Assembly: GCA_963804165.1 (NCBI GenBank)
Contig: CAWDPO010000023.1
Location: forward strand, 204,967-268,966
DNA from: an uncultured delta proteobacterium
GTDB lineage: Bacteria > Desulfobacterota > Binatia > UBA9968
DNA length: 64,000 bases
Reading direction: 5' to 3'
Position numbers and translations under genes: made by a program. This document shows, in pieces, positions 35,660-64,000 of this stretch (the first letter of the stretch is position 1; every line of letters starts with the position of its first letter). The notes beneath the pieces are model-generated. The model was given only the letters and a program-made list of their open reading frames with translations, searched no databases and was not told the origin of the DNA.

Positions 35660-35730
35660 TTGGGAAGCACTTCACGGACAAAAGGCGGACATTCCTTCCG
35701 TTTGATTGAAGGAGAATTCAATTCAATCCT
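35660..35730. repeat. palindromic-site right half with extended leader (near copy of 62801..62870)
   Basis: TTGGGAAGCAC...CGGACAAAAGGCGGACA...TTTGATTGAAGGAGAATTCAATTCAATCCT. Confidence 0.85.
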
Positions 35731-35744
35731 AGCGTCGCAACCGG

Positions 35745-36445
35745 TTACTTGATCACTCTATCTGCTCGCGCGAGCACGTTCGGCGGAATCGTCAGGCCGA
35801 TTTGCTTGGCAGCTTTGAGATTTATGATGAACTCGAACTTCTTCGGCTGTTCGCTTAGCGCCTTTCTTGTCGACGTAGGTTGCGGAGCGGCGAAACAAGT
35901 CGCTAACGTTCACGCCGTAGGTCATGAGCCCACCAGCTTCCACATAGTCCGCCACGTTGTATATCGCTGGAAGCCGAGTCCTTACTGCAAGTTCGACAAC
36001 CTGTTTTCGCTCAGAATTGAGCACAGGACCCCCCAGCGCGAGGACAGCCTCAGCACGCCCCTTGCTTGCGGCCCGGAAGGCAGCCTCAATATCCCTGCCA
36101 TCTAGTACGTCTAGGTATTGAAGCTTCACCTTGAACGCCCCTGCGGCGAATTCCGTTTCTTTCAACGACTGTGCTTGGCCTGGGATGGTTGAAGTCCCGA
36201 GGATGGCCACGCGGGAGAGGCTGGGAACAGTCTCCTTCAAAAGCTCCAGTTGTTTTCCGCTTATCTCTGGGCGAAGAGTTGACAGTCCAGTGATGTTCCC
36301 ACCAGGACGTCATGACGATGGGAATCGTAACAGTCGCTTCCTTGGCAGCACGGGTTACTGACGGAGCAGCCGTGACGATGACATCCACCTTGAGACGCAC
36401 TAGCTCCGCCGCGAGCGCGGGGAAGCGATCGAGTTTTTCCCCTGC
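35745..36445 (-). pseudogene. ABC transporter substrate-binding protein (ABC_sub_bind type), 5'-truncated with internal deletions
   Basis: [35 protein letters not shown] fragments in several frames. Confidence 0.8.
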
Positions 36446-36570
36446 AGTCGGTACGCTTGGCAGTCGCCTCTTTTTGCAACTGATAGCGCAAGAGGCTTAG
36501 CCTCGATAACTCGGTTTTGAATGTTCTCAGCCCGGGGGTTGGCGGCCTGTTCGCGCGCAAGCGCTTGTTA

Positions 36571-36942
36571 TTATAGCTCAGCGCGAATAAATTTATCGAT
36601 TTTTGCTTTAATTATCTCTAACGAGATCGGCTTTTCCAAGTAATCGACCATTCCCGCGTCTAAAGCCTCTTCCCGAGCGTGGCATCCAAGAAAATCGCTG
36701 CAACCAATGATCGGTATGTGAGTGGTTATTGAATTGCTTCTCACTGCGCGGGCTACGTCGGCGCCTTTCATATCCGGAAGATCAATATCCAACAAGATAA
36801 GCGTTGGCTTACCGGAAATAGCTAGTTTCATTGCCTCTGCGCCGCTCGCGGCTTGTGCGACTTCGTAGCCACAACCATGGAGCATCAACGTCAGGATTTC
36901 TCTTAGATGTAGATTGCCGTCGACGATAAGGATCTTCGGCAT
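36571..36942 (-). CDS. single-domain response regulator
   Basis: ILIVD, LILLDIDLPDM.G, DYLEKP. Confidence 0.88.
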   Translation of the reverse strand: MPKILIVDGNLHLREILTLMLHGCGYEVAQAASGAEAMKLAISGKPTLILLDIDLPDMKGADVARAVRSNSITTHIPIIGCSDFLGCHAREEALDAGMVDYLEKPISLEIIKAKIDKFIRAEL

Positions 36943-37153
36943 ATTGTGGCGGAGTCAAGTTTAGAGAAAGATCCATTGGGGCGCAACGCGGAAATTTTCT
37001 CATAATCACAGCACTGCAAAAGGGCGTTTCCAATTTTGCTCTCTAGGAAACTCAAAGGCGCAATTACGGATTTAATGGAGCGGAAGCGATCTAGTTAAAG
37101 AATCATCGGCAACGCCAGTGCGCTGAATCGCCGGGCCGCCCGGAGCACTGTTT

Positions 37154-37696
37154 TTAACGAAGAGATCGCCCCGGCCGAATAGCAGGATTGGTCGACGAGC
37201 TTCGGTGTGATCGATGAAATCTGTTAAGCAATCCGAACTCTTGCAGCTTTCTAGAAGTGAAGGTTCGGGACTCGCTCTGCCCGTCCGCTTGCTGGTAATC
37301 CACCGCGACGGAATCGGGAGTCCAGAAAATATGAAATGCGTTGGCCCCCGCTCTATCAAAGTGATCGCCTAAGCTACGCATGAGTTGCGACAGCTTACTT
37401 GAGACCTGGGTTTGTGAAGAAGAATGGTTTCGTCTTTGCTTTTGCCATTGCGCCTCCAGTCGGGAAATAACAGCGGAGCTGAAGCGGAAGGCGCTGCCAC
37501 TCGACGAGGAGCGATGACCAAAGTTTTCGCTCAAAAAGCCTTCGCTCGTTGCGTTTCGTAAAATCCACTCACTCGACGGGCTCAGAGCATCGCTACTAAC
37601 AAGGTAGTCGTGGCCATCTTTCTCAAGTTCAAAGGTTGCAATCCTGGCAGCTTCTAGCGACTGGCCAATGACTCTCAACGATCTAGCATGGGTCAT
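37154..37696 (-). CDS. hypothetical protein (paralog of 37821..38228)
   Basis: HARSLRVIGQSLEAAR...LSQLMRSLGDHFD...ESRTF shared with its neighbour. Confidence 0.7.
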   Translation of the reverse strand: MTHARSLRVIGQSLEAARIATFELEKDGHDYLVSSDALSPSSEWILRNATSEGFLSENFGHRSSSSGSAFRFSSAVISRLEAQWQKQRRNHSSSQTQVSSKLSQLMRSLGDHFDRAGANAFHIFWTPDSVAVDYQQADGQSESRTFTSRKLQEFGLLNRFHRSHRSSSTNPAIRPGRSLR

Positions 37697-37820
37697 ATAT
37701 GAGTTTTATTTGAATTGTAGGGGTCAGTGCAACAGCTATCGCGTCCGGAAAGACGCTGCAAGCAACTTAGGTGATTCTTATTCTTTGTTATCGTCTCTAG
37801 GCGACATTTATGCAAGGGGA

Positions 37821-39349: not shown

Positions 39350-40312
39350 ATGCGAAAATCGGCGGAGAAAACTATCTTCCTGGAACCGATGTACGCCCTC
39401 GCGGTTCGCAATCTCCCCGAAGGAGAGGACTGGCAGTACGAGATAAAACTTGACGGCTATCGGTGTATCGCCGCCCATGACTCCACCGGAGTAAAGTTGT
39501 GGTCGCGCAGCGGGAATTTATTAACAGCTCAATTCCCGGCGATCGCACAAGTCTGCCAGGTGCTTCCCCGGGGCACGGTCGTCGACGGCGAGATCGTCTC
39601 CCTCGACGAGAACGGCCTGACGTCATTCAATCTATTACAGCGCCACCGCTCGGAGGCATCGGCGATTCGTTACTATTTGTTCGATTTGCTTGTTGACCGC
39701 AGCGAAAGCTGGCTAAATGTCCCGCTCGCGGATCGGCGCGCCGCACTCGCCACAAAAGTCCGCCGGACCCTGCAACCTCCTTTATTAATCTCGGAAACGA
39801 TCGAGGCGCCCGGCGATCAACTGATTCAGTCGGCGAAAACCCTCGGCTTCGAGGGCATTATCGCAAAGCGTTTGAACTCCCTATACGAATCGGGAAAGCG
39901 CAGCGGAGCCTGGGTCAAATATAAGATCAACAAAGGACAAGAGTTCGTGATCGGCGGCTTTACACCCGGCAATCCGTTCGACGCCGTCATCGTCGGATAT
40001 TACCAGGACGGTAAGTTATTCTACGCGGGAAAAGTTCGTGCCGGCTTTGTGCCGCACGTCAGGCGCGAGGTGATGGCGAAGATGAAAGCATTGAGAATCG
40101 ACACTTGCCCTTTTGCCAATCTACCGGAGAAACGACGTACGCAGTGGGCGCTCACCCGCGAGGAAATGAAAGACTGCGTATGGCTCGAGCCGGAACTCGT
40201 CGCCCAGATTGAGTTCACCGAATGGACTCCAGACGGGCATCTGAGACACGCGAGTTTCATCGGCCTTCGCACCGACAAGCGCGCGCGGGAAATTGTACGA
40301 GAGCCCGGTTAA
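39350..40312 (+). CDS. ATP-dependent DNA ligase (stand-alone LigD ligase domain)
   Basis: YEIKLDGYR, VDGEIV, FDLL, EGIIAKR, YESGKRSGAWVK, QEFVIGG, EWT.DG.LRH. Confidence 0.92.
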   Translation: MRKSAEKTIFLEPMYALAVRNLPEGEDWQYEIKLDGYRCIAAHDSTGVKLWSRSGNLLTAQFPAIAQVCQVLPRGTVVDGEIVSLDENGLTSFNLLQRHRSEASAIRYYLFDLLVDRSESWLNVPLADRRAALATKVRRTLQPPLLISETIEAPGDQLIQSAKTLGFEGIIAKRLNSLYESGKRSGAWVKYKINKGQEFVIGGFTPGNPFDAVIVGYYQDGKLFYAGKVRAGFVPHVRREVMAKMKALRIDTCPFANLPEKRRTQWALTREEMKDCVWLEPELVAQIEFTEWTPDGHLRHASFIGLRTDKRAREIVREPG

Positions 40313-40388
40313 ACTCGATGCAATCTCATCCCGAATTTCCTCGTTCTGGCAAATTGCCGGAACCACGCGCTTTCTGCATGTCGGATTT

Positions 40389-41565: not shown

Positions 41566-42005
41566 TTGAGCGCACCCGCTAACTCTCTCCCTCATGAGAG
41601 TTAAAAATTGAGAGAGCCGGGTGAAAGGATAGGCTCCGGCCCTCTCTCACTGGCCAACCCACGCCACACCTTTTATTTTGTGTGCGATTCAAGCGCGGCC
41701 AAGCCATAGCCCAAGCGATGATTTTCCCCCCTGCCCCGGCAGGCGGGCGCCCCCTCTTTTACTTGTAGAATCTAGCACGCGCGCTGGAATTTCGGTTAAC
41801 TTTTGGCGTGGTCACTAGCAGATGACAAACCAGATTACCGCGAGGGACGACCGTCTTTCCTGCTCGCGTCGTTAAAACCGCTTCATACACGACAACCGAG
41901 TTGGATTCCTAATCCGGTGCGGCGCTGCAACATGCCAAAGCGAAAAGATAATTTTGATGCTGTGCCCGACTTGTGCCCGCCCTGACAGCCCATCCGAGTT
42001 TCAAT

Positions 42006-42029
42006 CGTAGGAGAATTCAGTTCAATCGT
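42006..42029. repeat. palindromic-site right half
   Basis: CGTAGGAGAATTCAGTTCAATCGT, preceded by the TGTGCCCG direct repeat at 41961/41972. Confidence 0.8.
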
Positions 42030-42203
42030 AACGTTTCGGGTGGGCGGTGCTTCGAGCGTCGGTCTCAACCCGAGGAGTTGGTGAAGCGGCAGCACAATCG
42101 CCTGTGATTGAGAAACGTGATGACCGCACATCAATTGTTTCTCTCGGAAGGTCTTGCCTCAGCGTTTCTTCTTTCCAGTTTTTGCTTTGGTGGCCAGGTC
42201 ATG

Positions 42204-43118
42204 CTAGGCGGAAAGCGCTTTCGCGGCGCCCTTGATCTTTTCCGGTCCTTCTGTCGTCAACTCGTTGACGAGTTTGACAAAGTTGGGATGCTCCAATCCC
42301 GATACCAGGAAAGTCCATCTCCAGGCGCGATGGGTCTTTGTCGAAATCTCCTCTTTCTCGGCTTCCGTGAACTTGCGGCCGGTCACGTTCTGCAGAGTCT
42401 CTATGTTCAGCTGGATCTGCTGCAACAGTAACCCGTCGATAGCTCCCCCAAGTTCGAGGAGCTCATCGACAGCAGTTTCTCGCTCCTTGAGGGTCGCCGT
42501 CTCCGCAATCTCGTCGATTAGCATGGTGTCAAGTTTGGCGTGTTGTGCCTCTTCCATCCAATGAAATCTCAAAAGATCGCGGAACAGCTCATCGAGACCC
42601 GAGGCATCACGCACGTGTTCGACGTAATGGAGCTGGGTAAACCATTCGATTACCGTGGTCAAGTACAGCGCGGCCAGCACCGACTTGCTCAGGACGACCT
42701 TCGCCACATCCTCCCGACCGGGGATTAAGCCGCACTGCGCGCCGAAACCTTGGTCGAACAAGACCACCGCGCGGCGAAAGAGCTCCTGATGCTTGAGCTC
42801 CTCCTCTGCGAACCGCAGCAGCGAACGGAGCCTGACTTTCTCCCCGTAGGCGTCCTTCAACGCCGCTTGCGTCACCATGGGAATAATAAATTCCTCCACG
42901 AAAGCGAAGATATGGCAGTAGGCGTTGCCCATGATCTGGTTCAACTGGCGCTTCTCGTTGTCGTTCAGACATGTGATGTTGTCAACACCGCTCAATCGAT
43001 TCGGCAGGAAACGCTTCGAGAAATCGAAATTCTTCCCTGCAAAAACATCGTCCTCTTTCCACGCTACCTTCTTGGAATTGTCGAGACATTCCTGGTAGGA
43101 GTAATTGTGCGAAAGCAT
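42204..43118 (-). CDS. ferritin-like diiron protein (AurF-like oxygenase family)
   Basis: FVEEF, EELKH, IEW...HY and EEAQH diiron ligand pattern. Confidence 0.75.
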   Translation of the reverse strand: MLSHNYSYQECLDNSKKVAWKEDDVFAGKNFDFSKRFLPNRLSGVDNITCLNDNEKRQLNQIMGNAYCHIFAFVEEFIIPMVTQAALKDAYGEKVRLRSLLRFAEEELKHQELFRRAVVLFDQGFGAQCGLIPGREDVAKVVLSKSVLAALYLTTVIEWFTQLHYVEHVRDASGLDELFRDLLRFHWMEEAQHAKLDTMLIDEIAETATLKERETAVDELLELGGAIDGLLLQQIQLNIETLQNVTGRKFTEAEKEEISTKTHRAWRWTFLVSGLEHPNFVKLVNELTTEGPEKIKGAAKALSA

Positions 43119-43240
43119 CGCGCACCTCTTCAACGTAAAGAGATTTTAGGCTTCGTCGAATGATTCTGAAAAACCCAACACACTCTGGCTAGCCCACGCT
43201 ATTTTATCAGTTCGATCAAAGTCAAGCTTATTATCGCCGC

Positions 43241-43308
43241 AGGATTGAACTGGAACGCAACAGTCGCGTCTTGTAGGATTAAGTCGTTGGAGAATACAAT
43301 TCAATCCT
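43241..43308. repeat. full palindromic site (degenerate)
   Basis: AGGATTGAACTGGAACG...GGAGAATACAATTCAATCCT. Confidence 0.82.
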
Positions 43309-43332
43309 AGCTCGCCGCGTCGCTTTGTTCGG

Positions 43333-44318
43333 TTACTTGATCACCTGATTCGCCCGCTCGAGCACGCGGGGCGGAATTGTCAGACCGATCTGCTTCGCCG
43401 TTTTCAGATTGATCACAAACTCAAACTTCGTTGCCTGCTGCACCGGCAAATCAGCCGGTTTGGCGCCTTTTAAAATCTTGTCGACGTAAACCGCCGCGCG
43501 CCGATAGAGGTCATCGTATTCCGTCCCGTAGAACATGAGGCCGCCCTCTTCGACAAACCCCTTATCAAAGTAAATAGCCGGCAACCGATATTTGTCGGCA
43601 AGCTCCACGATCCGCTTTCTTTCGGCGAAAAATCTGCGATTGGAGGTCGTCATAATCGCGCCAACCTGTTTTTGCTTTGCGGTTTGAAAGGCGCGCTCTA
43701 AATCTTTGGGGTCGGCTTGAGCCTCGATCTCGTCCAATTTGAGCTTCAGCGCCAGAGCCGCAGGCTTGATCTCTTTCAATTGAAAGTTTCCTGGTCCGGC
43801 TGCCGGAGTCCACAGAAGTCCAACTCGGCCGAGCTTGGGCACCGCGTCGTTGAGTATCTCTAGTCTTTTGGTATTCAGTTCTACTGATTGAGCAGTAAAA
43901 CCCGTCACATTCCCACCCGGCCGGGCTAGACTGGCAACCAATCCTGCGCCTATAGGGTTCGCAGCGCTCGTCATTACGATGGGAATGGTAGCGGTGGCGC
44001 TCTGGCCGCTAACGCCGCTACTGTCCCGGTAACCACAATCAGATCGATCTTAAGACGAACCAGCTCCCCCGCAAGCTCAGTTAGTCTTTCAGTCTTTTGC
44101 TCGGCAAACCGGTACTCGATGGTGAGATTCTTTCCTTCATTCCATCCAAACTTGCTCAGCTCTTGCCGGAACGCGTCCACGAGGACTGCATTGCCAGAAG
44201 CAGTGCTTGGATCCAGCAAACCTATGCGGAAGATTTTCCCTGTCGGCTGCGCCTCGACTATGGCCACAAAAGCAAGCAGGACCACTACAAACAGGATTGA
44301 GAAAATGGCTTTCCTCAT
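43333..44318 (-). CDS. ABC transporter substrate-binding protein (ABC_sub_bind type); one frameshift near 44000
   Basis: Signal peptide, ELVRLKIDLIV, GLVASLARPGGNVTG, GGLMFYG, YVDKILKGAKPADLPV. Confidence 0.88.
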
Positions 44319-45135: not shown

Positions 45136-45544
45136 ATGACTTTCGTCTCCCTGCCAACGGCCTTGAACAACCGAAAACCGCTGATTGCCATCGTTGATGA
45201 CGATGAGCCTGTCTGCCGTGCAGTGAGACGACTGGTGCGATCGGTGGCGATGGACGCGGAAACATTCAACTTCAGGACAACAGTTTCTCGATCTGCTTGA
45301 AGCGATGCCTTCGTTTCAACCCAAATGTTTGATTCTGGATGTGCAAATGCCGGAGATGAATGGTCTTGAAGTCCAAGATTGGCTCGTGAAAAACGGCAAC
45401 ACGGTTCCCGTGATTTTTATCACGGCGCACGATGAGGTCGGCGTCCGTGACAAGGCGCTAGCCGCTGGCGCAGTTGCGTTTTTGCGTAAGCCTTTCAACG
45501 ACGAGCTTTTGATCAAGACGCTTCGCGAGGCGCTGAAGGACTGA
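45136..45544 (+). CDS. single-domain response regulator; frameshift near 45275
   Basis: IAIVDDD in 44977..45300; CLILDVQMPEMNG...ITAH...LRKPF in 45305..45544; stop lies 2 nt before a palindrome half-site. Confidence 0.8.
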
Positions 45545-45546
45545 TT

Positions 45547-45570
45547 TGAAGGAGAATTCAGTTCAATCCT
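45547..45570. repeat. palindromic-site right half
   Basis: TGAAGGAGAATTCAGTTCAATCCT. Confidence 0.9.
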
Positions 45571-46659: not shown

Positions 46660-46722
46660 GAGATTGAACTGAACGACGCTTCAATGTAGATGCTGGCGGA
46701 GATTAAGCATTGAAGGAGAATT
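46660..46722. repeat. palindromic site, left part (interrupted; remainder at 49249..49263)
   Basis: GAGATTGAACTGAACGACGCTTCAATG...CATTGAAGGAGAATT| then element then |ATTCAGTTCAATCCT. Confidence 0.9.
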
Positions 46723-46869
46723 GGACTAAACCGCTTCGCGGTAGGCCGGAGGGCCGGAGTCCCTGCCATGACGTTCTTCCTGCTTTAGTTTTGCAGTTAT
46801 CATTTTTTTGACGGTGTGTCGTGTCGCAGTGATAGCCTCAGTGAAAATTTTTCACTCAAGGAGGCTGTC

Positions 46870-47715
46870 ATGGGAGCATTACGAGACCGGATGATCGAGG
46901 AGATGAAGCTGCGGAACTTTTCGGCTGCAACACAGAAGACGTACGTCTACGCGGTGACACGGCTAGCGAAATATCATGGCAAAGCGCCGGACCAGCTCGG
47001 TAAGGAGGAGATCCGAGCCTTTCTTGTGCATCTGATAGTGGAGCGGAAGTTATCGCCCAATGGTCTGACCGGCTACTGCTCGGGGCTGCGGTTTTTCTAT
47101 AACGAGACTCTGGGATGGGACGAGAACAAGCTGTTCATTCCACCGCGCAAGCAATCGTCACCTCTGGCGGAGGTCTTCAGTCCCGAGGAAATCGTGCGTC
47201 TGATCCGCGCGGCCCGAGGTCTCAAGCAGCGTGTGCTGTTAATGACCGCCTACTCGGCTGGACTGCGAGTCAGCGAGTTAGTCAATCTCAAGGTCAACGA
47301 CATCGATCCGGCGCGCATGACGCTACGTATCAGGCAAGGTAAAGGCGGCAAAGACCGTTACGCGATTTTGTCGCAGAACCTCCTTGCGGAACTGCGTGTG
47401 TATTGGAAACGCTACCGGTCCGCGGTCTGGCTTTTCCCCAACCGAGCCAAGAACGGCCCTTTGAGTCGAAACGAAGCGTGGCACATCTTCAATTCGGTCA
47501 AGAGAAGAGCGGGCCTTAAAAAGGGCCGTGGCATACACAGCCTGCGGGCATGTTTTGCCACTCATCTGTTGGAAGCGGGTGTGGACCTACGCTCGATCCA
47601 GTTGTTGATGGGGCACACCTCGCTTATGTCTACCCAGCGCTACTTGAGGCTATCGCCACAGAGCGTCAACCGTGCCCTTAGTCCGCTCGACCGATTACCG
47701 TTAACGACGGTCTAA
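46870..47715 (+). CDS. tyrosine recombinase (N-terminal SAM-like domain + catalytic domain)
   Basis: GGAGG RBS; GLRVSE, GKGGKDR, HSLR, LMGH and TQRY catalytic residues. Confidence 0.95.
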   Translation: MGALRDRMIEEMKLRNFSAATQKTYVYAVTRLAKYHGKAPDQLGKEEIRAFLVHLIVERKLSPNGLTGYCSGLRFFYNETLGWDENKLFIPPRKQSSPLAEVFSPEEIVRLIRAARGLKQRVLLMTAYSAGLRVSELVNLKVNDIDPARMTLRIRQGKGGKDRYAILSQNLLAELRVYWKRYRSAVWLFPNRAKNGPLSRNEAWHIFNSVKRRAGLKKGRGIHSLRACFATHLLEAGVDLRSIQLLMGHTSLMSTQRYLRLSPQSVNRALSPLDRLPLTTV

Positions 47716-47718
47716 GCC

Positions 47719-48909
47719 GTGGGCGCCGGCTCTGGACAGCCGGCAGCAAGAGGCGGCGTTGAACTGGCCGATATTTTTCGCGCCTATGGCGAGTCGTATC
47801 GCCGCCACCATCCGTTGCCGGTCTCCCATCTTAAGGTTATGCAGGCCGTGGAGCGCTGTCGCACTGCAGCTCTCGGAGGCCACCTCCAGCAGTGTGATGC
47901 CTGTGGCTTCGAGCGTCCCGCCTACAACTCCTGCCGCAATCGACACTGCCCTAAATGCCAATCGTTGGCGAAGGTCAAATGGCTCGATAAACAAAAGTCA
48001 GAACTGTTGCCGACCGGATATTTTCATCTGGTCTTTACCTTGCCGCACGAATTGAACCCGTTGATCCTGATCAACAAGAAACCTCTCATCAATATCCTGT
48101 TTCAATCGGTCTGGCAGACCTTGGCGCAGTTTGCCCGGAGTCATCTCGGTGGGAGCTTGGGGATCACCGCAGTTCTGCACACCTGGGACCAGACCCTGTT
48201 GGATCATTTTCATCTGCACTGTCTGGTTCCCGCCGGCGCGTTGTCCTTTGATCGAAACCGCTGGGTCCCGGCGCGTCAGGACTTTCTCTTTCCAGTCAAA
48301 GCCCTGAGCCGGGTCTTCCGCGCTAAGTTTCTCGACTCGCTCAAAAAGAGCTTCGATCAAAGCAAGTTGCTCTTCGTCGGACAGATCGCGCCCTTGGCCG
48401 ACGCCGACAGCTTTGGTGTACTTCTCAATGGATTGCGGAAAAAACCGTGGGTGGTCTATGCCAAAAAACCATTTGGCTCTCCCGTCTATGTCCTTGATTA
48501 CTTAGCTCGCTACACTCATCGTGTAGCACTCTCCAACGATCGCATCTGCTCGCTCCACAACCGGGAGGTCACCTTCACGTACCGCGATCGGAAAAATGAA
48601 GATCGACGTAAATTGATGACGCTGGGGGCCGAGGAGTTCATTCGACGCTTTTTGCTCCACGTCATCCCCAAGGGTTTCATGCGGGTGCGCCACTACGGCT
48701 TTTTAGCCAACCACCGCAAAGATTGTCTGTCGAAGTGTCGTCAACTCGTGGGACTTTCACCTGCACTCATCCCACCTCCTCAACGCTCTCCTGACGAGTT
48801 GATGCTGGCACTGAGGGGCATCGATATCCATCGCTGCCCCCGCTGCCAGACCGGAACGCTGATGTGGGTCTTCGACTTGGCGGTCTCCCGACCGTGGGAT
48901 TCGTCGTGA
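47719..48909 (+). CDS. IS91-family Y2 (HUH) transposase with Zn-binding N-terminus
   Basis: CDAC...SCRNRHCPKC, HLVFTLP, HTW...HFHLH, YLARY, RRFLLHV.P.GF.RVRHYG. Confidence 0.95.
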   Translation: MGAGSGQPAARGGVELADIFRAYGESYRRHHPLPVSHLKVMQAVERCRTAALGGHLQQCDACGFERPAYNSCRNRHCPKCQSLAKVKWLDKQKSELLPTGYFHLVFTLPHELNPLILINKKPLINILFQSVWQTLAQFARSHLGGSLGITAVLHTWDQTLLDHFHLHCLVPAGALSFDRNRWVPARQDFLFPVKALSRVFRAKFLDSLKKSFDQSKLLFVGQIAPLADADSFGVLLNGLRKKPWVVYAKKPFGSPVYVLDYLARYTHRVALSNDRICSLHNREVTFTYRDRKNEDRRKLMTLGAEEFIRRFLLHVIPKGFMRVRHYGFLANHRKDCLSKCRQLVGLSPALIPPPQRSPDELMLALRGIDIHRCPRCQTGTLMWVFDLAVSRPWDSS

Positions 48910-49267
48910 AGATCGCTCGATCAAATCAAAACCAGAGTCTTGCTGTTGCTCAGTGCCGGAGCCAATGCAGCGCTGTATTCTGTTCCGCCATTTTCCCTGC
49001 TACTAGCCCGCGCTACAGTGCGCGCAGCTCCCTGCTCGCCGCTACAAACCACATCCCATACCGCCCCATCATCTTGTTGCTCACCACTCAGCAGCGTCCG
49101 TTTACCTCATCCTTTCCTGTTCAATCCCCATAGGCAACGACTCTTGCCTCTCCCAGCGCTTTAGTCCAATGGGTTTTAACCTGAATGCGCCCGTTCTTCC
49201 CAGCTATCACCGATCGTTCTGCGCTCGCATTCAGGTTAAAACCTGTACATTCAGTTCAATCCTGGCG

Positions 49268-50242: not shown

Positions 50243-50340
50243 GGCCGCTACATTACCACGCGGAGCCTAGCGATGAAAAGTGTGATTTGCCGCAATAGAA
50301 GAACCAGAGTCTTCGAGGGGAAGAAGACCAATTTCGACGT

Positions 50341-50407
50341 AGGATTGAACTGAACGACGCTTCAGTCAAATCTCATAGGATTTAGTCGTAGGAGAAATCA
50401 GTTCAAT
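50341..50407. repeat. full palindromic site
   Basis: AGGATTGAACTGAACGACGCTTCA...CGTAGGAGAAATCAGTTCAAT. Confidence 0.88.
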
Positions 50408-50608
50408 TACAGCCTTAGCGTTGGCGTTGAGGGAGTGCTGAGGATCCGAAGCGATAAGGGAATCCAGCGGCAGGACTGCTGCGTTCCCCTCCACCGCTTT
50501 GTTAGTTAAGTTAGATAGTGTCATTTCACGCAATCGAGCAGTTGAAAGCGAGCCGAGAGCCGCTTGCAACGAACCGAGCCGAGGCGCTAAACGTCGAATC
50601 AACTGAAA

Positions 50609-51256: not shown

Positions 51257-51361
51257 ACATTACAGAATCCCTAAAGACGCAAATGGCCTGAAAGCGTTTT
51301 TACTCGCATAACGCGTTCGTGGATAGTCCTCAAACCTACAGTCAAATTCTGTAATCGACGT

Positions 51362-51385
51362 GAGATTGAACTTAACGACGCTTCA
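51362..51385. repeat. palindromic-site left half
   Basis: GAGATTGAACTTAACGACGCTTCA. Confidence 0.85.
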
Positions 51386-51454
51386 ACGCGATGCTAGCCT
51401 AATCCAAAACCAACAGCGGGTTTTCTTAGTTCCCCGCCGAGTTAGATCCAATGG

Positions 51455-51688
51455 TTAGCGGCTTATGCGCCTCGCCTCACTGTTTTCGCTGGTAGGCGTG
51501 CGAGCAAGTCTCCACAACCAAAGACTCAGACCGCCGAAAACGATAACAGCCAAAACGCTTGGCCACAATGGCATCGGATAACCACCTACAAGCACTTCTG
51601 GCCGTATTACAAGCCGCGCCAGCTGCGCAATGGCCAGCGAAGCGAACACCACGCTCGACACTAGCAATCCTGTAGTTTGGGAGTTCAT
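51455..51688 (-). CDS. small two-TM membrane protein
   Basis: GGAGG RBS; VFASLAIAQLARL...PLWPSVLAV. Confidence 0.65.
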   Translation of the reverse strand: MNSQTTGLLVSSVVFASLAIAQLARLVIRPEVLVGGYPMPLWPSVLAVIVFGGLSLWLWRLARTPTSENSEARRISR

Positions 51689-51850
51689 GCTGTCATGCCC
51701 TCCTAATCAATTAGGTGCCTTCAACGATAAGCGTGTCACCGCTGAAACAGGAGCGCAACATTGCAATTCTGGCGTCACGTTGCTGCGAGCAGCTGCTATC
51801 GGTGCGCATTTCCAGCACGGGTTGCGCGGAAGAACCAGATTTTTAGCCTA

Positions 51851-51883
51851 AGATTGACCTGAAGGAGAATTCAGTTCAACTCC
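51851..51883. repeat. collapsed palindromic site (left arm fused to right half)
   Basis: AGATTGACCTGAAGGAGAATTCAGTTCAACTCC. Confidence 0.75.
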
Positions 51884-54555: not shown

Positions 54556-54613
54556 AGGATTGAACTGAACGACGCTTCAAAGAAATCTGGCGGGATTAAG
54601 CAGAAGGAGAATT
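54556..54613. repeat. palindromic site, left part (interrupted; remainder at 57140..57154)
   Basis: AGGATTGAACTGAACGACGCTTCA...GAAGGAGAATT| then element then |ATTCAGTTCAATCCT. Confidence 0.9.
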
Positions 54614-54760
54614 GGACTAAACCGCTTCGCGGTAGGCCGGAGGGCCGGAGTCCCTGCCATGACGTTCTTCCTGCTTTAGTTTTGCAGTTATCATTTTTTT
54701 GACGGTGTGTCGTGTCGCAGTGATAGCCTCAGTGAAAATTTTTCACTCAAGGAGGCTGTC

Positions 54761-55606
54761 ATGGGAGCATTACGAGACCGGATGATCGAGGAGATGAAGC
54801 TGCGGAACTTTTCGGCTGCAACACAGAAGACGTACGTCTACGCGGTGACACGGCTAGCGAAATATCATGGCAAAGCGCCGGACCAGCTCGGTAAGGAGGA
54901 GATCCGAGCCTTTCTTGTGCATCTGATAGTGGAGCGGAAGTTATCGCCCAATGGTCTGACCGGCTACTGCTCGGGGCTGCGGTTTTTCTATAACGAGACT
55001 CTGGGATGGGACGAGAACAAGCTGTTCATTCCACCGCGCAAGCAATCGTCACCTCTGGCGGAGGTCTTCAGTCCCGAGGAAATCGTGCGTCTGATCCGCG
55101 CGGCCCGAGGTCTCAAGCAGCGTGTGCTGTTAATGACCGCCTACTCGGCTGGACTGCGAGTCAGCGAGTTAGTCAATCTCAAGGTCAACGACATCGATCC
55201 GGCGCGCATGACGCTACGTATCAGGCAAGGTAAAGGCGGCAAAGACCGTTACGCGATTTTGTCGCAGAACCTCCTTGCGGAACTGCGTGTGTATTGGAAA
55301 CGCTACCGGTCCGCGGTCTGGCTTTTCCCCAACCGAGCCAAGAACGGCCCTTTGAGTCGAAACGAAGCGTGGCACATCTTCAATTCGGTCAAGAGAAGAG
55401 CGGGCCTTAAAAAGGGCCGTGGCATACACAGCCTGCGGGCATGTTTTGCCACTCATCTGTTGGAAGCGGGTGTGGACCTACGCTCGATCCAGTTGTTGAT
55501 GGGGCACACCTCGCTTATGTCTACCCAGCGCTACTTGAGGCTATCGCCACAGAGCGTCAACCGTGCCCTTAGTCCGCTCGACCGATTACCGTTAACGACG
55601 GTCTAA
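54761..55606 (+). CDS. tyrosine recombinase
   Basis: Identical to 46870..47715. Confidence 0.95.
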   Translation: MGALRDRMIEEMKLRNFSAATQKTYVYAVTRLAKYHGKAPDQLGKEEIRAFLVHLIVERKLSPNGLTGYCSGLRFFYNETLGWDENKLFIPPRKQSSPLAEVFSPEEIVRLIRAARGLKQRVLLMTAYSAGLRVSELVNLKVNDIDPARMTLRIRQGKGGKDRYAILSQNLLAELRVYWKRYRSAVWLFPNRAKNGPLSRNEAWHIFNSVKRRAGLKKGRGIHSLRACFATHLLEAGVDLRSIQLLMGHTSLMSTQRYLRLSPQSVNRALSPLDRLPLTTV

Positions 55607-55609
55607 GCC

Positions 55610-56800
55610 GTGGGCGCCGGCTCTGGACAGCCGGCAGCAAGAGGCGGCGTTGAACTGGCCGATATTTTTCGCGCCTATGGCGAGTCGTATCGCCGCCACC
55701 ATCCGTTGCCGGTCTCCCATCTTAAGGTTATGCAGGCCGTGGAGCGCTGTCGCACTGCAGCTCTCGGAGGCCACCTCCAGCAGTGTGATGCCTGTGGCTT
55801 CGAGCGTCCCGCCTACAACTCCTGCCGCAATCGACACTGCCCTAAATGCCAATCGTTGGCGAAGGTCAAATGGCTCGATAAACAAAAGTCAGAACTGTTG
55901 CCGACCGGATATTTTCATCTGGTCTTTACCTTGCCGCACGAATTGAACCCGTTGATCCTGATCAACAAGAAACCTCTCATCAATATCCTGTTTCAATCGG
56001 TCTGGCAGACCTTGGCGCAGTTTGCCCGGAGTCATCTCGGTGGGAGCTTGGGGATCACCGCAGTTCTGCACACCTGGGACCAGACCCTGTTGGATCATTT
56101 TCATCTGCACTGTCTGGTTCCCGCCGGCGCGTTGTCCTTTGATCGAAACCGCTGGGTCCCGGCGCGTCAGGACTTTCTCTTTCCAGTCAAAGCCCTGAGC
56201 CGGGTCTTCCGCGCTAAGTTTCTCGACTCGCTCAAAAAGAGCTTCGATCAAAGCAAGTTGCTCTTCGTCGGACAGATCGCGCCCTTGGCCGACGCCGACA
56301 GCTTTGGTGTACTTCTCAATGGATTGCGGAAAAAACCGTGGGTGGTCTATGCCAAAAAACCATTTGGCTCTCCCGTCTATGTCCTTGATTACTTAGCTCG
56401 CTACACTCATCGTGTAGCACTCTCCAACGATCGCATCTGCTCGCTCCACAACCGGGAGGTCACCTTCACGTACCGCGATCGGAAAAATGAAGATCGACGT
56501 AAATTGATGACGCTGGGGGCCGAGGAGTTCATTCGACGCTTTTTGCTCCACGTCATCCCCAAGGGTTTCATGCGGGTGCGCCACTACGGCTTTTTAGCCA
56601 ACCACCGCAAAGATTGTCTGTCGAAGTGTCGTCAACTCGTGGGACTTTCACCTGCACTCATCCCACCTCCTCAACGCTCTCCTGACGAGTTGATGCTGGC
56701 ACTGAGGGGCATCGATATCCATCGCTGCCCCCGCTGCCAGACCGGAACGCTGATGTGGGTCTTCGACTTGGCGGTCTCCCGACCGTGGGATTCGTCGTGA
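55610..56800 (+). CDS. IS91-family Y2 (HUH) transposase
   Basis: Identical to 47719..48909. Confidence 0.95.
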   Translation: MGAGSGQPAARGGVELADIFRAYGESYRRHHPLPVSHLKVMQAVERCRTAALGGHLQQCDACGFERPAYNSCRNRHCPKCQSLAKVKWLDKQKSELLPTGYFHLVFTLPHELNPLILINKKPLINILFQSVWQTLAQFARSHLGGSLGITAVLHTWDQTLLDHFHLHCLVPAGALSFDRNRWVPARQDFLFPVKALSRVFRAKFLDSLKKSFDQSKLLFVGQIAPLADADSFGVLLNGLRKKPWVVYAKKPFGSPVYVLDYLARYTHRVALSNDRICSLHNREVTFTYRDRKNEDRRKLMTLGAEEFIRRFLLHVIPKGFMRVRHYGFLANHRKDCLSKCRQLVGLSPALIPPPQRSPDELMLALRGIDIHRCPRCQTGTLMWVFDLAVSRPWDSS

Positions 56801-57146
56801 AGATCGCTCGATCAAATCAAAACCAGAGTCTTGCTGTTGCTCAGTGCCGGAGCCAATGCAGCGCTGTATTCTGTTCCGCCATTTTCCCTGCTACTAGCCC
56901 GCGCTACAGTGCGCGCAGCTCCCTGCTCGCCGCTACAAACCACATCCCATACCGCCCCATCATCTTGTTGCTCACCACTCAGCAGCGTCCGTTTACCTCA
57001 TCCTTTCCTGTTCAATCCCCATAGGCAACGACTCTTGCCTCTCCCAGCGCTTTAGTCCAATGGGTTTTAACCTGAATGCGCCCGTTCTTCCCAGCTATCA
57101 CCGATCGTTCTGCGCTCGCATTCAGGTTAAAACCTATACATTCAGT

Positions 57147-57407
57147 TCAATCCTGCGCTTTCTGTTGGCCTGAAACGTTCACTTGATTACCTTGTCCGCT
57201 CTCAGCCGCGACGCCGGAAAAGAGCAACAGTGGGGTGAGCAATCCCAGGTGCTTGATCACCACAAGAATAATCACGCTCGCCAGCACTCCGACCGATAGA
57301 CTTGTATTCGACGAAATGTAGTACAGGACGATTCCGTGACCGATCAGAATGGCCGCTGCCACCAGGAGTATCCAAGGCCGCGTAAGCAGACGCCTGTGTC
57401 CCATCAT
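57147..57407 (-). CDS. small two-TM membrane protein
   Basis: ATG overlaps the methyltransferase stop; two hydrophobic helices; stop codon falls inside the palindrome arm. Confidence 0.55.
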   Translation of the reverse strand: MMGHRRLLTRPWILLVAAAILIGHGIVLYYISSNTSLSVGVLASVIILVVIKHLGLLTPLLLFSGVAAESGQGNQVNVSGQQKAQD

Positions 57408-58247: not shown

Positions 58248-58840
58248 GTGACGCTAACAGCAAACCCAGCTAAGGATCGGCGGATTCAAAAGACGCAACG
58301 CCTCTTGCGTGAGGCGCTCGCTTCTTTGATTCGCGAAAAGCCCTATAACTCCATCGTTGTGAAACAGATTCTCGATCACGCCAACGTCGGCAGATCGACC
58401 TTCTATACGCACTTTCGCGACAAAGACGATCTGCTCGTCAGTTGCATACATGATATGCTTCACTCCGTTGACGCGATGGGCTGGCGTCCGCGGGAAAAGG
58501 TTACGAAACAATGATTGGGTTCAGCCTTCCCATCTTCGAGCATATACATCGGCACATGCATACCGGCGAGGCAAAAATGGGCAGCAAGAGTCGAGAGGTC
58601 ATTCATGAACGCCTTCGCAAGGTGCTCGCTGAGCTGATTGCCGATGACATTCGAAAAGATTTTCAAGGCCGGCGAAAAACGGCGGGCCAGATTTCACTGG
58701 ACCTTCTTGCTCAATACGTGACTTCGACATTCATTCTCGTGCTCAATTGGTGGGTGGAGTGTGGTCGGCTTCCTCCGAAGGAAGCCAATGACTTGTTTCG
58801 TGCGCTGATCTTGCCGACGCTGGCTGCCAACTTGGAGTGA
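58248..58840 (+). CDS. TetR family regulator, frameshift near 58490
   Basis: DRRIQKT...ANVGRSTFYTHFRDK HTH; C-terminal half in 58511..58840; divergent from the methyltransferase. Confidence 0.82.
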
Positions 58841-58896
58841 ATGAAATAGAGCGCTGGACATTCAATGGGACAAAACGTGCGGAGGAGAACACCAAC

Positions 58897-59328: not shown

Positions 59329-60787
59329 ATGTCTGTACACTCAGTGATGAACCGGTCGCCATATCACTTGGGTTTCTGCACCCTGGATACGGAAACTAGC
59401 TTGGACGACCTGCCCGTCCGAGGCACGGTTCCGCCCTGGCTCACCGGCACCTTGGTGCGGACCGCTCCAGCGAAGTTCGAGGTGGGTGACCGGAGCTACA
59501 ATCATTGGTTCGACGGGCTGGCCATGCTGCACAAGTTCGCCTTCACGGGCGGTCGCGTCGCGTATGCGAACCGCTATCTCCGTAGCCGGTCGTATCTTGA
59601 GGCGACGACAACGGGTAAGATCAGTCGGGGCGAGTTCGCCACCGACCCATGCCGGACCCTGTTCCACCGCGTGGCCGCCTGGTTCTGGCCGAAGTTCACT
59701 GATAACTGCAACGTCAGCGTCAATAAATTGGCCAGCGAGGTCGTCGCCTACACCGAAACGCGGATGCCGATTCGCTTCGATCCGGACACGTTGAACACGC
59801 TCGGTGGGTACGACTATGACGAGCGGATCAAGGGGCCGGTCTCCACTGCGACCCGCACCTCGACCACGCGCGAGGTCGGCACTACACCTACATGTTGGAA
59901 TTTGGTCGGAGGAGCAAGTATCACCTCTTTGGCATCGATCAGGGGACGGGACGAGAGGTGGTCGTCGCCACGCTCTCTGCCGACCGACCCGCGTACATGC
60001 ACTCGTTTGGGATGAGTGAACGGTATCTTGTCCTGGTGGAATTCCCTCTCGTGGTCAACCCGCTTCGGCTCAAGTTCAGTGGCAAGCCGTTCATCCGGAA
60101 TTACCAATGGGAACCGGATCGCGGGGCCCGGTTCCACGTCGTCGATAAGGAGAGCGGGCAAGTGGTGCGGACAGCGCGGAGCGGGGCGGTCTTTGCCTTC
60201 CATCACGTCAACGCCTTCGAAGAGGGCGACGAGATTGTAGTGGACATCGTAGCCTTCCCGGATTCAGGCGTCATCGATCAGCTTTACCTCGAGCATCTGC
60301 GGTCGGCCGAGCCGGTGATGACGACAGGGAAGCTTACCCGCTTCCGTATCGGCTCGAGTGGCGACGCCCCTGACGAGAGGCGTTGGAGGCCCCGATCTAG
60401 TTTCCCCGCATTAACTACCGCTGCCGCGCCGGACGGCGGTACAGCTACGTGTACGGAGCTGGGAATGAGGTGCAGGGAAACTTCATCGACAACCTCGTGA
60501 AGTTGGACCTAGAGCATAATACGACCTCGTCTTGGTACCAGGAGGGCTGTTACCCCGGAGAGCCTGTATTCGTGGCGAGACCGGATGCGGCGGACGAGGA
60601 CGACGGGTCATACTCTCGGTTGTGCTGGATGCTAAGAAGGCCGCGTCCTTTCTGCTGATCCTGGACGCCTCGAGCTTTCGGGAGTTGGCCCGCGCGGGAG
60701 GTGTCACACCACATCCCGTTTGGGTTCCACGGGAATTACTTCGCGGAGACGAGCGGGCCGGAGTCGTTTCGAGACCTCCACCGATAA
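59329..60787 (+). CDS. carotenoid oxygenase (RPE65/LSD) family protein, several frameshifts
   Basis: V.G.VP.WL.G, HWFDGLAM, YMHSF, FHHVNAFE and GEPVFV motifs in successive frames. Confidence 0.82.
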
Positions 60788-61816: not shown

Positions 61817-61991
61817 GGGCTAAATTGGCTTTCTAGTATCTTAGCGATTAGGGATGCTCGGTGGATTTGTTGCTCGGGTTTTTATTTCTGCTTACCTCCT
61901 GGAGTGACCGCCAATCCGAAAGGCGTTCATGAATGCAAGGTTCTTCCAGGAGATGGCGGTGCGATTCCGACCGTGGCGCTCTACATTTGAG

Positions 61992-62810
61992 TTATGTGGA
62001 AACTGTTCTGAGCTTCATCTGCTCCAACACCGCTCGACCGAGCAGACCGCAGGGATTGCCGAGTGTCTCGAACATTTCGAAGTGGTTATACCCTTCGCCG
62101 AGGAGGAATTTTATCGGCTTGCCTGCTTCTTTCACCGCCGCCGCGAACTCTCGGTTCTGGCGCTGGAACTCAGGCGTCTCCAGTGTCCCGTGCGCGACAA
62201 TCACTGGGGCAACCAACTTCTCAAGATGACCTTTGGGCGAGAGCTTCTCGATGACCTCTGGAGTAAATTTCACGTAGCTGGAGCGCTTCGAGAGACTGAC
62301 GGGATACAAATCATACAAACCGCTACAACAGAGTCCTCCCTTCAATACATCGGCAGGCAACCCAAAATCCTTCTCCCAGTCGGTCGTGAGCGCAACGGCA
62401 GCGAGATACCCTCCCGACGAGGTGCCTGATATATAGATCCGATTAGAATCGCCGCCAAATGTCGCGGCATTTTTGTAGATCCAGGCTATCGATCTCCGCA
62501 CCTGATCTGCCATAACCATGAGATTGCCGCCAACCTCAGGCGCATTATTGAAGTCCACGGAGATGAAATGAGCCCCCGCATCGACGAAAGTCTCGGACAT
62601 GTAAGCCGCGCCCTTGGCATTTCCACTCCGCCAAGCACCGCCATGAATAAAGATATTGATCGGAGCGTTGGATTGCTTTGTTACGTAGATGTCGACTTTC
62701 TCGATCTCAGCCGAGCCATAGGCAACACGACGTGGCTGGCCGAGACGAGCTAATGCGGCAGCGCTCTTGTGTGCATTGCGTTTACTAATTTGTGGTGCAT
62801 TTGGGAAGCA
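61992..62810 (-). pseudogene. arylformamidase-like alpha/beta hydrolase, probably 5'-truncated
   Basis: FIHGGAW, GTSSGG, SGLYDL, NHFE; reading frame runs into the repeat at 62801 with no RBS/ATG. Confidence 0.72.
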
Positions 62811-62870
62811 CCTCTCGGACAAAAGGCGGACACCATGCGATTTGATTGAAGGAGAATTCAGTTCAATCCT
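62801..62870. repeat. palindromic-site right half with extended leader (near copy of 35660..35730)
   Basis: TTGGGAAGCAC...CGGACAAAAGGCGGACA...TTTGATTGAAGGAGAATTCAGTTCAATCCT. Confidence 0.88.
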
Positions 62871-62885
62871 GCGATTGCCGCGTGG

Positions 62886-63838
62886 TTATTTGATCACCCT
62901 GTCCGCTCTCGCCAGCACGTTCGGCGGGATCGTTAAGCCAATCTCCTTAGCCGCTTTCAAATTGATAACGAACTCGAATTTTTTCGGCTGTTTCACCGGA
63001 AGATTGCCAGGCTTTCCACCCTTCAGAATTTTGTCCACGTACGTAGCCGCGCGGCGGTCCAAATCGGCGCGGTTTGCCGCATAGGTCATCAGCCCGCCCT
63101 CTTCCACAAACTCGCTCCGGGGTAAGCCGCCGGGAGCCGGTTCTTTACGGCATATTGAGGCAACAGTGCTGGCTGAGGGTTAAACACAGGACCTGCAAGT
63201 ACGAAAACCGCTTCAGCCCGCGCCTTGCTCGCCTCTCGGAACGCAGTCTCAAAATCCTTAACACTTAGTATGTCCAAGTATTGAAGCTGCACCCCGAGTG
63301 TTGCTGCAGCGCGTTCGGTCTCTCTTAACTGTATACCGTTCCCCGCGTTGGCCGATTGCCCAAGCACCGCCATACGGGAGAGCTTGGGTAGAATTTCTCT
63401 GAGCAACTCAAGCCGCTTTCCAGCCAAGTCCGCAGTCATTGACGATAAGCCGGTGATATTTCCCGCAGGTCGGGCCAGAGTGGTCACGGGTCCGTTTCCA
63501 ACCGGATCGGGATCCTGCAAAAACACTATGGGAATCGTGGTCGTCGCTTCTTTGGCGGCGCGTGTTGCTGTCGCGCCACCGGTGACGATCACGTCCACCT
63601 TGAGACGCACGAGCTCGGCCACGCGGGTAACGAAAGTTTTCTCCGCGCTTGGATATATAATCACTAAGTTTTTTCCTTCTACGTAACCGAGATCGCGCAG
63701 GCCCTGGCCGAATGCGCCCGACTTGGTGGAGCTAAGGTAGCCTATCCGGTAGACTTTTGGCTGCTGCGCCTCGGCGATCATCGCAACAGCCAGCAGCATC
63801 ACCGCAAACAGGATTGATGTCGCCGCAGCTTTCTTCAT
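62886..63838 (-). CDS. ABC transporter substrate-binding protein (ABC_sub_bind type); frameshift near 63115
   Basis: Signal peptide, ELVRLKVDVIVT, DPDPV, LARPAGNITG, GGLMTY, YVDKILKG. Confidence 0.88.
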
Positions 63839-63949
63839 TGCGCTCCTCATCCTTGCGGCTTTTATCACGGATACGGAAGCTGAGAAAGGTGTTGTTTACG
63901 ACAGAAAGAAAACCAGAGTCATCGAGGGGAAAAAGGCTAATTTCGACGT

Positions 63950-64000
63950 AGGATTGAACTGAACGACGCTTCAATGCGATGTTGGGGAAGATTGGATTGA
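63950..64000. repeat. palindromic site, cut by the window edge
   Basis: AGGATTGAACTGAACGACGCTTCAATG...GATTGA; the last bases match the start of the right half. Confidence 0.88.

Follow-up and report, generated by a model that had tools for sequence, protein, structure and literature searches.

A 64-kb stretch of DNA from an uncultured delta proteobacterium (source genome G000, contig C23, positions 204967-268966; hereafter the window, whose end is also the end of the contig) is punctuated by imperfect palindromes of about 70 bp that lie between its genes. In related genomes such a palindrome encloses a tyrosine-recombinase gene of its own, and it is also the precise landing site of an insertion sequence (IS); for these reasons, the palindromes look like recombination sites of a new kind. 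The reading that we favour, and to which we would give an even chance, sees in them the end or recombination sites of a family of elements with an Xer-like recombinase, bounding gene units in a decaying array of substrate-binding-protein (SBP) genes and offering a precise integration site to a second element.

The palindromes stand well clear of chance. With up to two mismatches, the arm AGGATTGAACTGAA has 13 matches in the window, all at or beyond position 35717, where shuffles predict 0.42, and none of 100 shuffles reached 13. A previous reading of the letters without database searches (the sequence-only reading) had listed 11 sites, among them right halves at 35707, 42006, 45547 and 62847, and none in the first 35 kb, and both statements hold. 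On the gene-sense strand, here the minus strand, a full site consists of X (AGGATTGAAYTGAA), the spacer TTCTCC, an inner arm x', a short variable centre, an inner arm x, the spacer GCGTCG and X' (TTCAGTTCAATCCT); its layout is that of a conserved 14-bp outer stem, a conserved bubble of TTCTCC against GCGTCG, an inner stem and a centre that varies. Since x' and x repeat X' and X in degenerate form, the "half" sites are palindromes in their own right: B' is formed by the arm X, TTCTCC and the degenerate x', and A' by the degenerate x, GCGTCG and X'. A full site is then B' followed directly by A', two 14-6-14 core-like sites with shared arms and different spacers, which together can also fold, as far as pairing predicts, into one bubbled hairpin. 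The left and right halves of the sequence-only reading are thus present, but they are self-contained palindromes of about 34 nt with either GCGTCG or TTCTCC as spacer and not torn fragments; stand-alone A', B' and collapsed copies all read 14-6-14, which gives them a dif-like appearance of inverted arms around a 6-bp spacer. In a scan of G000 and 82 further loci, full sites numbered 67, lone B' sites 65 and lone A' sites 104; this last number is too high, since an A'-type 18-mer had served to retrieve those loci, some of which are chance matches. G000 also has six collapsed copies of 34 nt, which read X-6-X' and contain one or the other spacer.

We aligned 60 distinct full copies from G000 and its relatives, most of which fold into one long hairpin with an outer stem of 14-15 bp, a small bubble and an inner stem. 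RNAalifold returned no structure for this alignment, and the pairs were therefore set by hand; in the resulting structure of 24 pairs, the paired share of cells is 84.6%, and sliding the partner leaves 47.3% at most; these values bear out the consensus and the stem-bubble-stem-loop geometry proposed earlier. Pairs also covary: in 45 cells both partners have changed, a number not reached in any of 500 shuffles, and pair 22/56 is U-A in 31 copies and A-U in 11. Pairing of the outer helix amounts to 91.7%, with no bulged columns or extrahelical bases. No covariation was seen between the three outermost bases of X and those of X', either inside one palindrome or between the two sides of a gene (means of 2.19 and 2.09 paired of three vs 2.08 for random pairs).

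The link to a recombinase comes from relatives and soil metagenomes, in which a gene for a distinct, XerD-like tyrosine recombinase is nested inside the palindrome; the window itself has no copy. The gene was first noticed in three lone A' sites of different genomes that had a common upstream coding sequence, and our counts draw on 6 genome loci and 80 metagenome loci. The order is X-TTCTCC, x' (nCCAGTAy..), some 85 nt in which the ribosome-binding site is covered by a hairpin, the open reading frame (ORF), 9-10 nt and GCGTCG-X'. This last block lies 9-10 nt past the last codon in 45 of 50 loci, and the distance of X-TTCTCC from the ATG, on its 5' side, is 74-88 nt in 33 of 59 loci; the remaining 26 represent a longer variant with an extra, conserved reverse ORF of 131-134 aa and of no known family, for which X-TTCTCC was found 660-800 nt further upstream in 12 of 19 loci examined. 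Examples of the reverse ORF, without Pfam match, are L067:264-659 (-) and L275:821-1225 (-). An intact nested recombinase of 301 aa, with Phage_integrase and SAM-like domains, is encoded at L067:929-1834 and scores 197 bits against the XerD model, under its cut-off of 329.6. In locus L004, the order is SBP gene, X-TTCTCC, a 274-aa recombinase, GCGTCA-X', type-1 leader (see below) and SBP gene, the element occupying the place of a 70-nt palindrome between two intact SBP genes.

Among the matches listed, 35 pairs of X and X' are 900-2100 nt apart and have distinct flanks; 20 of these measure 1015-1024 bp and 8 measure 1664-1803 bp, and the remainder, of 941 and 1902-2102 bp, are in part pairs formed with a neighbouring site. 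Identical elements have differing surroundings, one left flank occurring with different right flanks and vice versa, and there is no target-site duplication among the 35 listed flank pairs. Recombinase-bearing copies are homologous to one another in their arms and inner ends, so the whole X...X' unit descends together, and the short copies have the same terminal inverted repeats as the longer, enzyme-coding copy, as do MITEs (miniature transposable elements with inverted repeats). The nested recombinase is 29% identical to the IS-borne recombinase of the window and 32-37% identical to the single Xer-like gene of 25 other genomes of the genus. Searching with it at E<=1e-20 gave 247 protein clusters, many of the 120 listed lying on contigs of 1.0-1.3 kb; public data annotate it only as XerC/XerD. 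We propose that the palindromes would be the paired ends of a small tyrosine-recombinase element and of its far more numerous gene-less miniatures: in autonomous copies, about 1 kb with the XerD-like gene separates B' from A', and in 70-nt copies nothing does. The nested recombinase would act on the palindromes, and the 70-nt copies may derive from the autonomous element or be served by it.

The palindromes are also the target of another element. The two copies that had been described as full but interrupted are indeed full, and what splits them are two copies, 99.7% identical, of one 2.5-kb IS91-family element. It encodes a Y2 transposase (NF033538, 430.6 bits for a cut-off of 125, with further matches to PF04986 and PF14319) and a tyrosine recombinase of 299 aa with SAM_4 and Phage_integrase domains. 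Against the IntI model TIGR02249, the latter scores 156 bits, short of the cut-off of 265, and aligns at 4-181 and 248-315 only. The sequence-only reading had allowed for a cognate integrase only in this element; there is an IntI-like recombinase there, albeit below the cut-off, and relatives have a second recombinase, the XerD-like one of the nested gene. According to a preprint (bioRxiv 10.1101/542381), IS91-borne recombinases are the closest relatives of IntI and are without its insertion.

In both window copies of the IS, the left flank finishes with GGAGAA-TT and the right flank starts with TTCAGTTCAATCC. In total, 10 of 10 left junctions read spacer|TTGGACTAAACC (one with AT for TT), seven following GCGTC(G) and three following GGAGAA, and 6 of 6 right junctions abut |TTCAGTTCAATCC. 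The same junction is found in IS relatives on contigs C18, C24 and C30 of G000 (on C30, the right side only) and in loci L016, L038, L139, L143, L186 and L188, L167 being one further, atypical IS locus. Given this uniformity, the insertion point is the boundary of spacer and X', always after a purine. Together with the nested gene, the fixed junctions go some way to support the earlier proposal of recombination sites for a tyrosine recombinase: the IS91-family Y2 element with its IntI-like recombinase integrates exactly at the spacer/X' junction, which offers a concrete target for elements of this kind. The point R|TTCAGTTCAATCC is the geometric equivalent of the G|TT point of integron attC sites. 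Apart from the shared TT, the element shows no target duplication. In the IS91 family, GTTC or CTTG adjoins the ori end; the ori-side junction here reads ..CCTATCC|GTTC in A'-type insertions and ..TGTAC|ATTC in the two window copies. The left end of the IS resembles X plus bubble (TTGGACTAAAC--CGCTTC vs TTGAACTGAACGACGCTTC), a likeness that 9-20 of 1000 shuffles equal and that is suggestive only.

A second IS subfamily, about 57% identical, occupies a different fixed site, ..CTCACTTAATAG|TTAGAC. Its copies in G000 lie at C5:2906-4932, C10:35714-37739, C37:1304-2623, C41:1232-3166, C41:58820-60853 and C9:5009-6327; an unoccupied copy of the site is found at L018:4300-4345, and the site is located 3' of a hairpin and a promoter-like leader, TTGACA-17-GATATT. 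The 20-mer at the left end of the first IS recurs in at least 117 stretches from many phyla, including the metagenome-assembled genomes (MAGs) of loci L114-L192. Its left flank is often a complete, perfect palindrome (e.g., L114, L120, L128 and L177) or ends GATAA-N6-TT. These left flanks hint that the whole family of IS91 elements with a recombinase may target hairpins. For the IS91-type elements of other phyla, a pattern search placed the right end for only 4 of 82 left ends, two of these not being ends of palindrome type.

The sites are anything but evenly scattered. G000 has 85 arm matches with at most one mismatch, 65 of which have a neighbour within 5 kb (200 random placements gave a mean of 9.4 and a maximum of 20), and orientation is uniform inside each cluster and follows that of the genes. 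The long-read congener G001 (the same as G019) has 56 arm matches against 2 for a control pattern, in about nine places, one of which holds 16 co-oriented sites in 21 kb. Among the 31 genomes of the genus, with the unpublished G006 included, the 18-mer is found 32 (G000), 28, 13, 8, 7 and 7 times in six genomes and 0-2 times in the others, among them genomes that are 98-100% complete; in two other families of the order, it is present in 1 of 12 genomes. By our own arithmetic, about 17 chance matches to the 18-mer are expected across the collection. A spread across phyla was considered and rejected: the contigs labelled Pyrinomonadaceae, Verrucomicrobiia and Blastocatellia are probably mis-binned, since they are 75-82% identical to G000 over 42-84% of their length, like the contigs of accepted relatives.

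In soil metagenomes of 12 studies, contigs cover only about a quarter of a 10-kb stretch, roughly the size of the IS, though this is not confirmed per run. Contigs that join 46680-46687 to 49249-49253 were considered as products of IS excision, but they carry about 30 other letters at the join and are therefore other intact palindromes. The segment 49312-49415, the 3' part of an SBP gene, has a summed contig depth in the thousands in four soil metagenomes and must therefore be extremely common in soils.

The genes flanked by the palindromes are mostly orphan SBP genes of PF04392 in co-oriented clusters. Sites fall on the boundaries of gene units in the order A', leader, gene, B', often with one gene per interval, and the arrays, all co-oriented, have a spacing of 0.6-4.5 kb and include diverse small genes. 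B' lies about 4-25 nt past the SBP stop codon. After A' comes a conserved type-1 leader, about 120 nt long and with motifs of promoter-like and Shine-Dalgarno type, and the distance of A' from the SBP start codons downstream of it is fairly constant at about 100-120 nt; before non-SBP genes, the leader after A' is of a second type with a TTGACA-(16-18)-GATATT motif. Remnants of SBP 3' ends precede the sites even behind unrelated genes. The proteins neighbouring the sites are only about 50% identical, and the arm and the bubble are conserved far better than pairing requires. Of 44 matches to a type-1 leader motif, 16 have an A' site upstream; by eye, the other 28 are mostly chance matches, about four looking true (two behind a collapsed site and two without a site).

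SBP genes also occur without palindromes. With tblastn, G000 has 218 matching SBP pieces, some of them in tandem arrays that number about 15-30 genes each and lie on four contigs (C6:1-33400, C37:120000-151700, C38:1-30100 and C16:154800-173100), many of whose genes are frameshifted. The intergenic DNA that we read on array contig C6 is different and has no palindrome; it holds (e.g., at 16617-16731 and 27750-27862) tandem motifs of 7-8 nt (such as CAGTGAG/CAGTAAG or GGCAATA/GGCATTA) just 5' of the ribosome-binding site, some of which are complementary to the downstream signal-peptide coding region. The SBP tree was dropped as evidence: on a quick tree, the 14 of 68 intact SBP genes with palindromes are scattered, requiring 12 changes against a shuffled mean of 13.0.

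There are signs that units have changed their neighbours. On contig C21 of the same assembly, two window segments, 42010-43489 (at 98.4% identity) and 50343-51863 (at 99.4%), recur in a different arrangement; the homology of C21 with the window stops right after X-TTCTCC and starts right at X', and the site that is collapsed in the window is full in C21. Both short contigs C21 and C22 repeat these segments at 98-99% identity in other order, and they could be a second locus or a co-assembled strain variant. Recombination at the spacers would account for such a reshuffling of units. On the other hand, an AurF-like gene common to G000 and G019 is 93% identical over 975 nt, that is, over the gene plus 16 and 29 nt only, and within 1.5 kb on either side of it G019 has no palindrome site; a gene shared without sites speaks against attC-like cassettes.

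A bolder extension of our reading, which we think unlikely, is an exchange of units independent of integrons. Heterospecific A' (GCGTCG) and B' (TTCTCC) sites alternate, and a dedicated Xer-like recombinase would excise, integrate and swap the promoter-bearing A'...B' units between arrays, the IS91-type element entering through the same crossover point. If true, the system would be a natural counterpart of recombinase-mediated cassette exchange and would explain why unrelated genes stand in former SBP slots with SBP 3' remnants. The sites mark the edges of a fast-changing island and account for the breaks of assemblies at these places.

Several observations weigh against the favoured reading. 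No nested recombinase gene was found in the contigs of G000, an assembly 81% complete; of the genus's 30 other genomes, G019 alone has one, in broken form, and a 99%-complete congener has 7 sites and no nested gene. The five genomes with the nested gene have 2-11 copies of the 18-mer compared with 32 in G000, and dosage of the gene and number of sites are therefore not linked. No clear empty site was seen among the leaders examined, and, with A' associated with the leader, the site could thus spread by duplication of an intergenic module rather than by transposition. Around an isolated copy on C46, a search for an empty site met no orthologous region in 30 congeners. The breakpoints of the C21 arrangement fall on the edges of conserved 20-nt blocks, and homologous recombination inside the blocks would leave the same picture. 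SBP bodies also undergo gene conversion: paralogues at C5:20367-21278 and C37:133716-134627 are near-identical over about 770 nt of the mature region (95.5% over a 916-nt match) and have unrelated signal peptides, 3' ends and flanks, which looks like a conversion tract beginning at the signal-peptide cleavage motif. Finally, the inner stem covaries, and the core pairs on the gene-sense strand favour G-U over A-C (67 vs 29), with which a transcribed hairpin is equally compatible.

That last point belongs to the rival we take most seriously, although we find it somewhat improbable: the palindromes would be intergenic hairpins of the host, of the type of repetitive extragenic palindromes (REPs), bacterial interspersed mosaic elements (BIMEs) or Correia repeats, transcribed to protect, process or insulate mRNA 3' ends, and the IS91-type element and the Xer-like gene would merely use them as safe landing sites, much as IS1397 uses BIME loops. 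The position of B' after stop codons and of A' before leaders with promoter-like and Shine-Dalgarno motifs suits an RNA hairpin, as do the constant orientation of sites with genes, the tie of the site to the leader module and the compensatory changes of the inner stem; moreover, at pair 10/75 a frequent C-to-U variant gives U-G in 22 of 60 copies and A-C in none. Yet the stem is AT-rich with no U tract past it, the sense strand has no advantage in folding energy (-21.0 vs -22.3 kcal/mol for the antisense strand, sense being lower in 22 of 60 copies), and over all pairs the wobble signal levels out (G-U 78, A-C 81 on the gene-sense strand). Conservation of arm and bubble beyond the needs of pairing, next to such diverged proteins, the common descent of recombinase-bearing X...X' units, the patchy occurrence within one genus and the lack of any matching Rfam family are likewise hard to reconcile with a host RNA structure.

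The sequence-only reading itself had seen in the island a candidate non-canonical integron, with folded, single-stranded attC-like sites delimiting cassettes and, perhaps, the IntI-like, IS-borne recombinase, to which the nested Xer-like one could now be added as a candidate; this we consider very unlikely. The geometry of outer stem, unpaired spacer, inner stem and variable loop agrees, the IS enters at spacer|TTCAG, the relative place of G|TT in attC, the IS91-borne recombinases are IntI's nearest kin, and the spacing, gene content and co-orientation of the arrays are integron-like. However, G000 has no match to TIGR02249 above 265 bits, the best ones skipping model positions 182-247, and the true IntI of G001 (445 bits) has no palindrome or repeat within about 17 kb, which leaves the array without a linked integron integrase. 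Integron attC boxes read RYYYAAC and GTTRRRY, with crossover at G|TT; the boxes here, ACTGAAT and GTTCAGT as read from the 60-copy alignment, match these in 5 of 7 and 6 of 7 positions. The well-paired outer helix without extrahelical bases, the wobble bias of the core pairs toward the sense rather than the bottom strand, the apparent promoter leaders of the units, the AurF-like gene shared as a bare gene, the SBP 3' remnants before sites behind non-SBP genes and the halves that stand alone, as attC sites do not, all speak against this reading. A last alternative, that the 14-nt inverted arms bind a dimeric transcription factor co-regulating the SBP genes, is hardly credible: it would suit the conserved leaders and the near-constant distance of A' from SBP starts, but not the location of B' at the 3' ends of genes, the occurrence of sites after unrelated genes, the nesting of a recombinase gene at fixed register, the use of the sites as IS insertion points or the other SBP arrays of G000, some 100 genes, that lack sites.

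Table 1. Palindromes, IS copies and associated features of the window (coordinates count from the first base of the window)
Feature	Position	Strand	Remarks
B' site	35697..35730	-	X-TTCTCC-x' on the gene-sense minus strand; directly 3' of a broken SBP gene
B' site	41996..42029	-	3' of the AurF-like gene 42204-43133
Composite palindrome (B'+A'), 68 nt	43241..43308	-	full copy
B' site	45537..45570	-	3' of a truncated SBP gene
Composite palindrome, left part, split by IS	46660..46722	-	terminates GGAGAA-TT
IS91-family element, copy 1	46721..49249	+	tyrosine recombinase 46816-47715, Y2 transposase 47719-48909; shared TT makes the junction ambiguous
Arm TTCAGTTCAATCCT, remaining part of the first split palindrome	49250..49263	-	
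SBP gene, PF04392, 324 aa	49268..50242	-	palindromes on both sides; the sole full-length, single-frame SBP of five in the window
Type-1 leader	50243..50340	-	between arm and SBP start codon
Composite palindrome, 70 nt	50341..50410	-	full copy
A' site, lone	51362..51394	-	X-CGACGC-x' on the plus strand
Collapsed palindrome, 34 nt	51850..51883	-	X-GGAGAA-X'; in the C21 copy of the segment, the site is full (72 nt)
Second composite palindrome, left part, split by IS	54556..54613	-	
IS91-family element, copy 2	54612..57140	+	recombinase 54707-55606, transposase 55610-56800; 99.7% identical to copy 1
Arm completing the second split palindrome	57141..57154	-	SBP 3'-end remnant at 57179-57199
B' site	62835..62870	-	3' of the broken SBP gene 62889-63868
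A' site, probably composite	63950..64000	-	cut by the end of window and contig

Besides the features of Table 1 and a response regulator, the island contains an IS5/IS1182-like DDE transposase (DUF772 and DDE_Tnp_1; 52883-54301, plus strand), overlapped on the opposite strand by a 381-aa ORF of no family, and an RPE65-type carotenoid oxygenase gene (59329-60500, plus strand) split into two overlapping frames, probably a frameshifted pseudogene. A TetR regulator is represented by its C-terminal domain only (58511-58840), and an ATP-dependent DNA ligase with adenylation and C-terminal domains (39350-40312, plus strand) lies on the strand opposite to the array.

Compared with known systems, the sites share with attC and IntI the imperfect palindrome with a conserved outer stem, unpaired central spacer, inner stem and variable loop, the co-oriented arrays and the joining of an element with an IntI-like recombinase at the boundary of spacer and outer arm, a purine followed by TT. 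They differ in arms of 14 bp instead of 7, in the conserved sequence of the bubble, in having neither extrahelical bases nor IntI, attI or Pc, in units with promoter-like leaders apparently of their own, in halves that form separate 14-6-14 palindromes and in a gene shared between genomes without its site. REPs, with REPINs and their REP-associated tyrosine transposases (RAYTs), are likewise abundant short palindromes with a single recombinase gene between two repeat halves, and in IS1397 and ISKpn1, which enter BIME loops, other IS elements likewise take a palindrome as their specific target. The flanked gene here, in contrast, encodes an Xer-like tyrosine recombinase and not a Y1 HUH transposase, and the copies are clustered in islands and not dispersed. 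No RAYT gene flanked by palindromes was found in G000, where only 1 of 18 matches to PF01797 lies within 2 kb of an arm; about a dozen ORFs of about 320 aa with a Y1_Tnp domain, among these 18 places, look like an IS200/IS605-like family unrelated to the palindromes. The GTAG- and CGTC-tagged REPs, as described in PMC3733652, have stems of 8-9 bp, loops of 4-5 nt and an unpaired tag at the end, as opposed to stems of 14 bp and spacers of 6 nt here. CGTC does occur in the spacer and one base outside X', but not as a REP-defining tag.

Other site-specific systems resemble the palindromes in part. The pdif modules of Acinetobacter plasmids are bounded by core sites of arm, 6 bp and arm and occur in varied contexts, but pdif sites are 11-6-11, alternate in orientation and depend on host XerC/XerD, whereas here each arm is the same 14-mer, spacers of two types alternate without a change of orientation and some sites hold a recombinase gene of their own. 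In the Xer1-dependent, phase-variable lipoprotein arrays vpma and vsp of mycoplasmas, paralogous genes for exported proteins each follow a conserved recombination site and an Xer-like gene lies in the locus; those systems work by inversion between opposed genes sharing one promoter, while the units here all point one way, each with a leader apparently its own. Our inserted element shares with IS91-family elements that have an upstream tyrosine-recombinase gene the Y2 transposase and the lack of a target duplication beyond TT; its ori-side junction has GTTC in A'-type insertions and ATTC in B-type insertions, and it differs in its target, a specific palindrome junction. IS elements and their MITEs also resemble the sites: autonomous copies of 1.0 or 1.7-1.8 kb and gene-less copies of 70 nt have 14-bp terminal inverted repeats and sub-terminal sequence in common, the end of the ORF is beside the right repeat, the ribosome-binding site is covered by a hairpin and many metagenome contigs have about the length of the element. 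Here, the orientation of the miniatures relative to genes is constant, a tyrosine recombinase is the enzyme, and neither target-site duplication nor empty sites were found. The sites therefore fail as integron attC, REP/RAYT or tagged REPs, and they fit an enzyme-bearing element with miniatures save for the last-named features. Short palindrome families with an enzyme of their own are known for HUH Y1 transposases (REP/RAYT) and DDE transposases (IS/MITE), and in the literature searched we found none whose autonomous member encodes an Xer-like tyrosine recombinase; if the recombinase does act on the sites, they would belong to a small mobile or recombination module that is both new and common in soil metagenomes.

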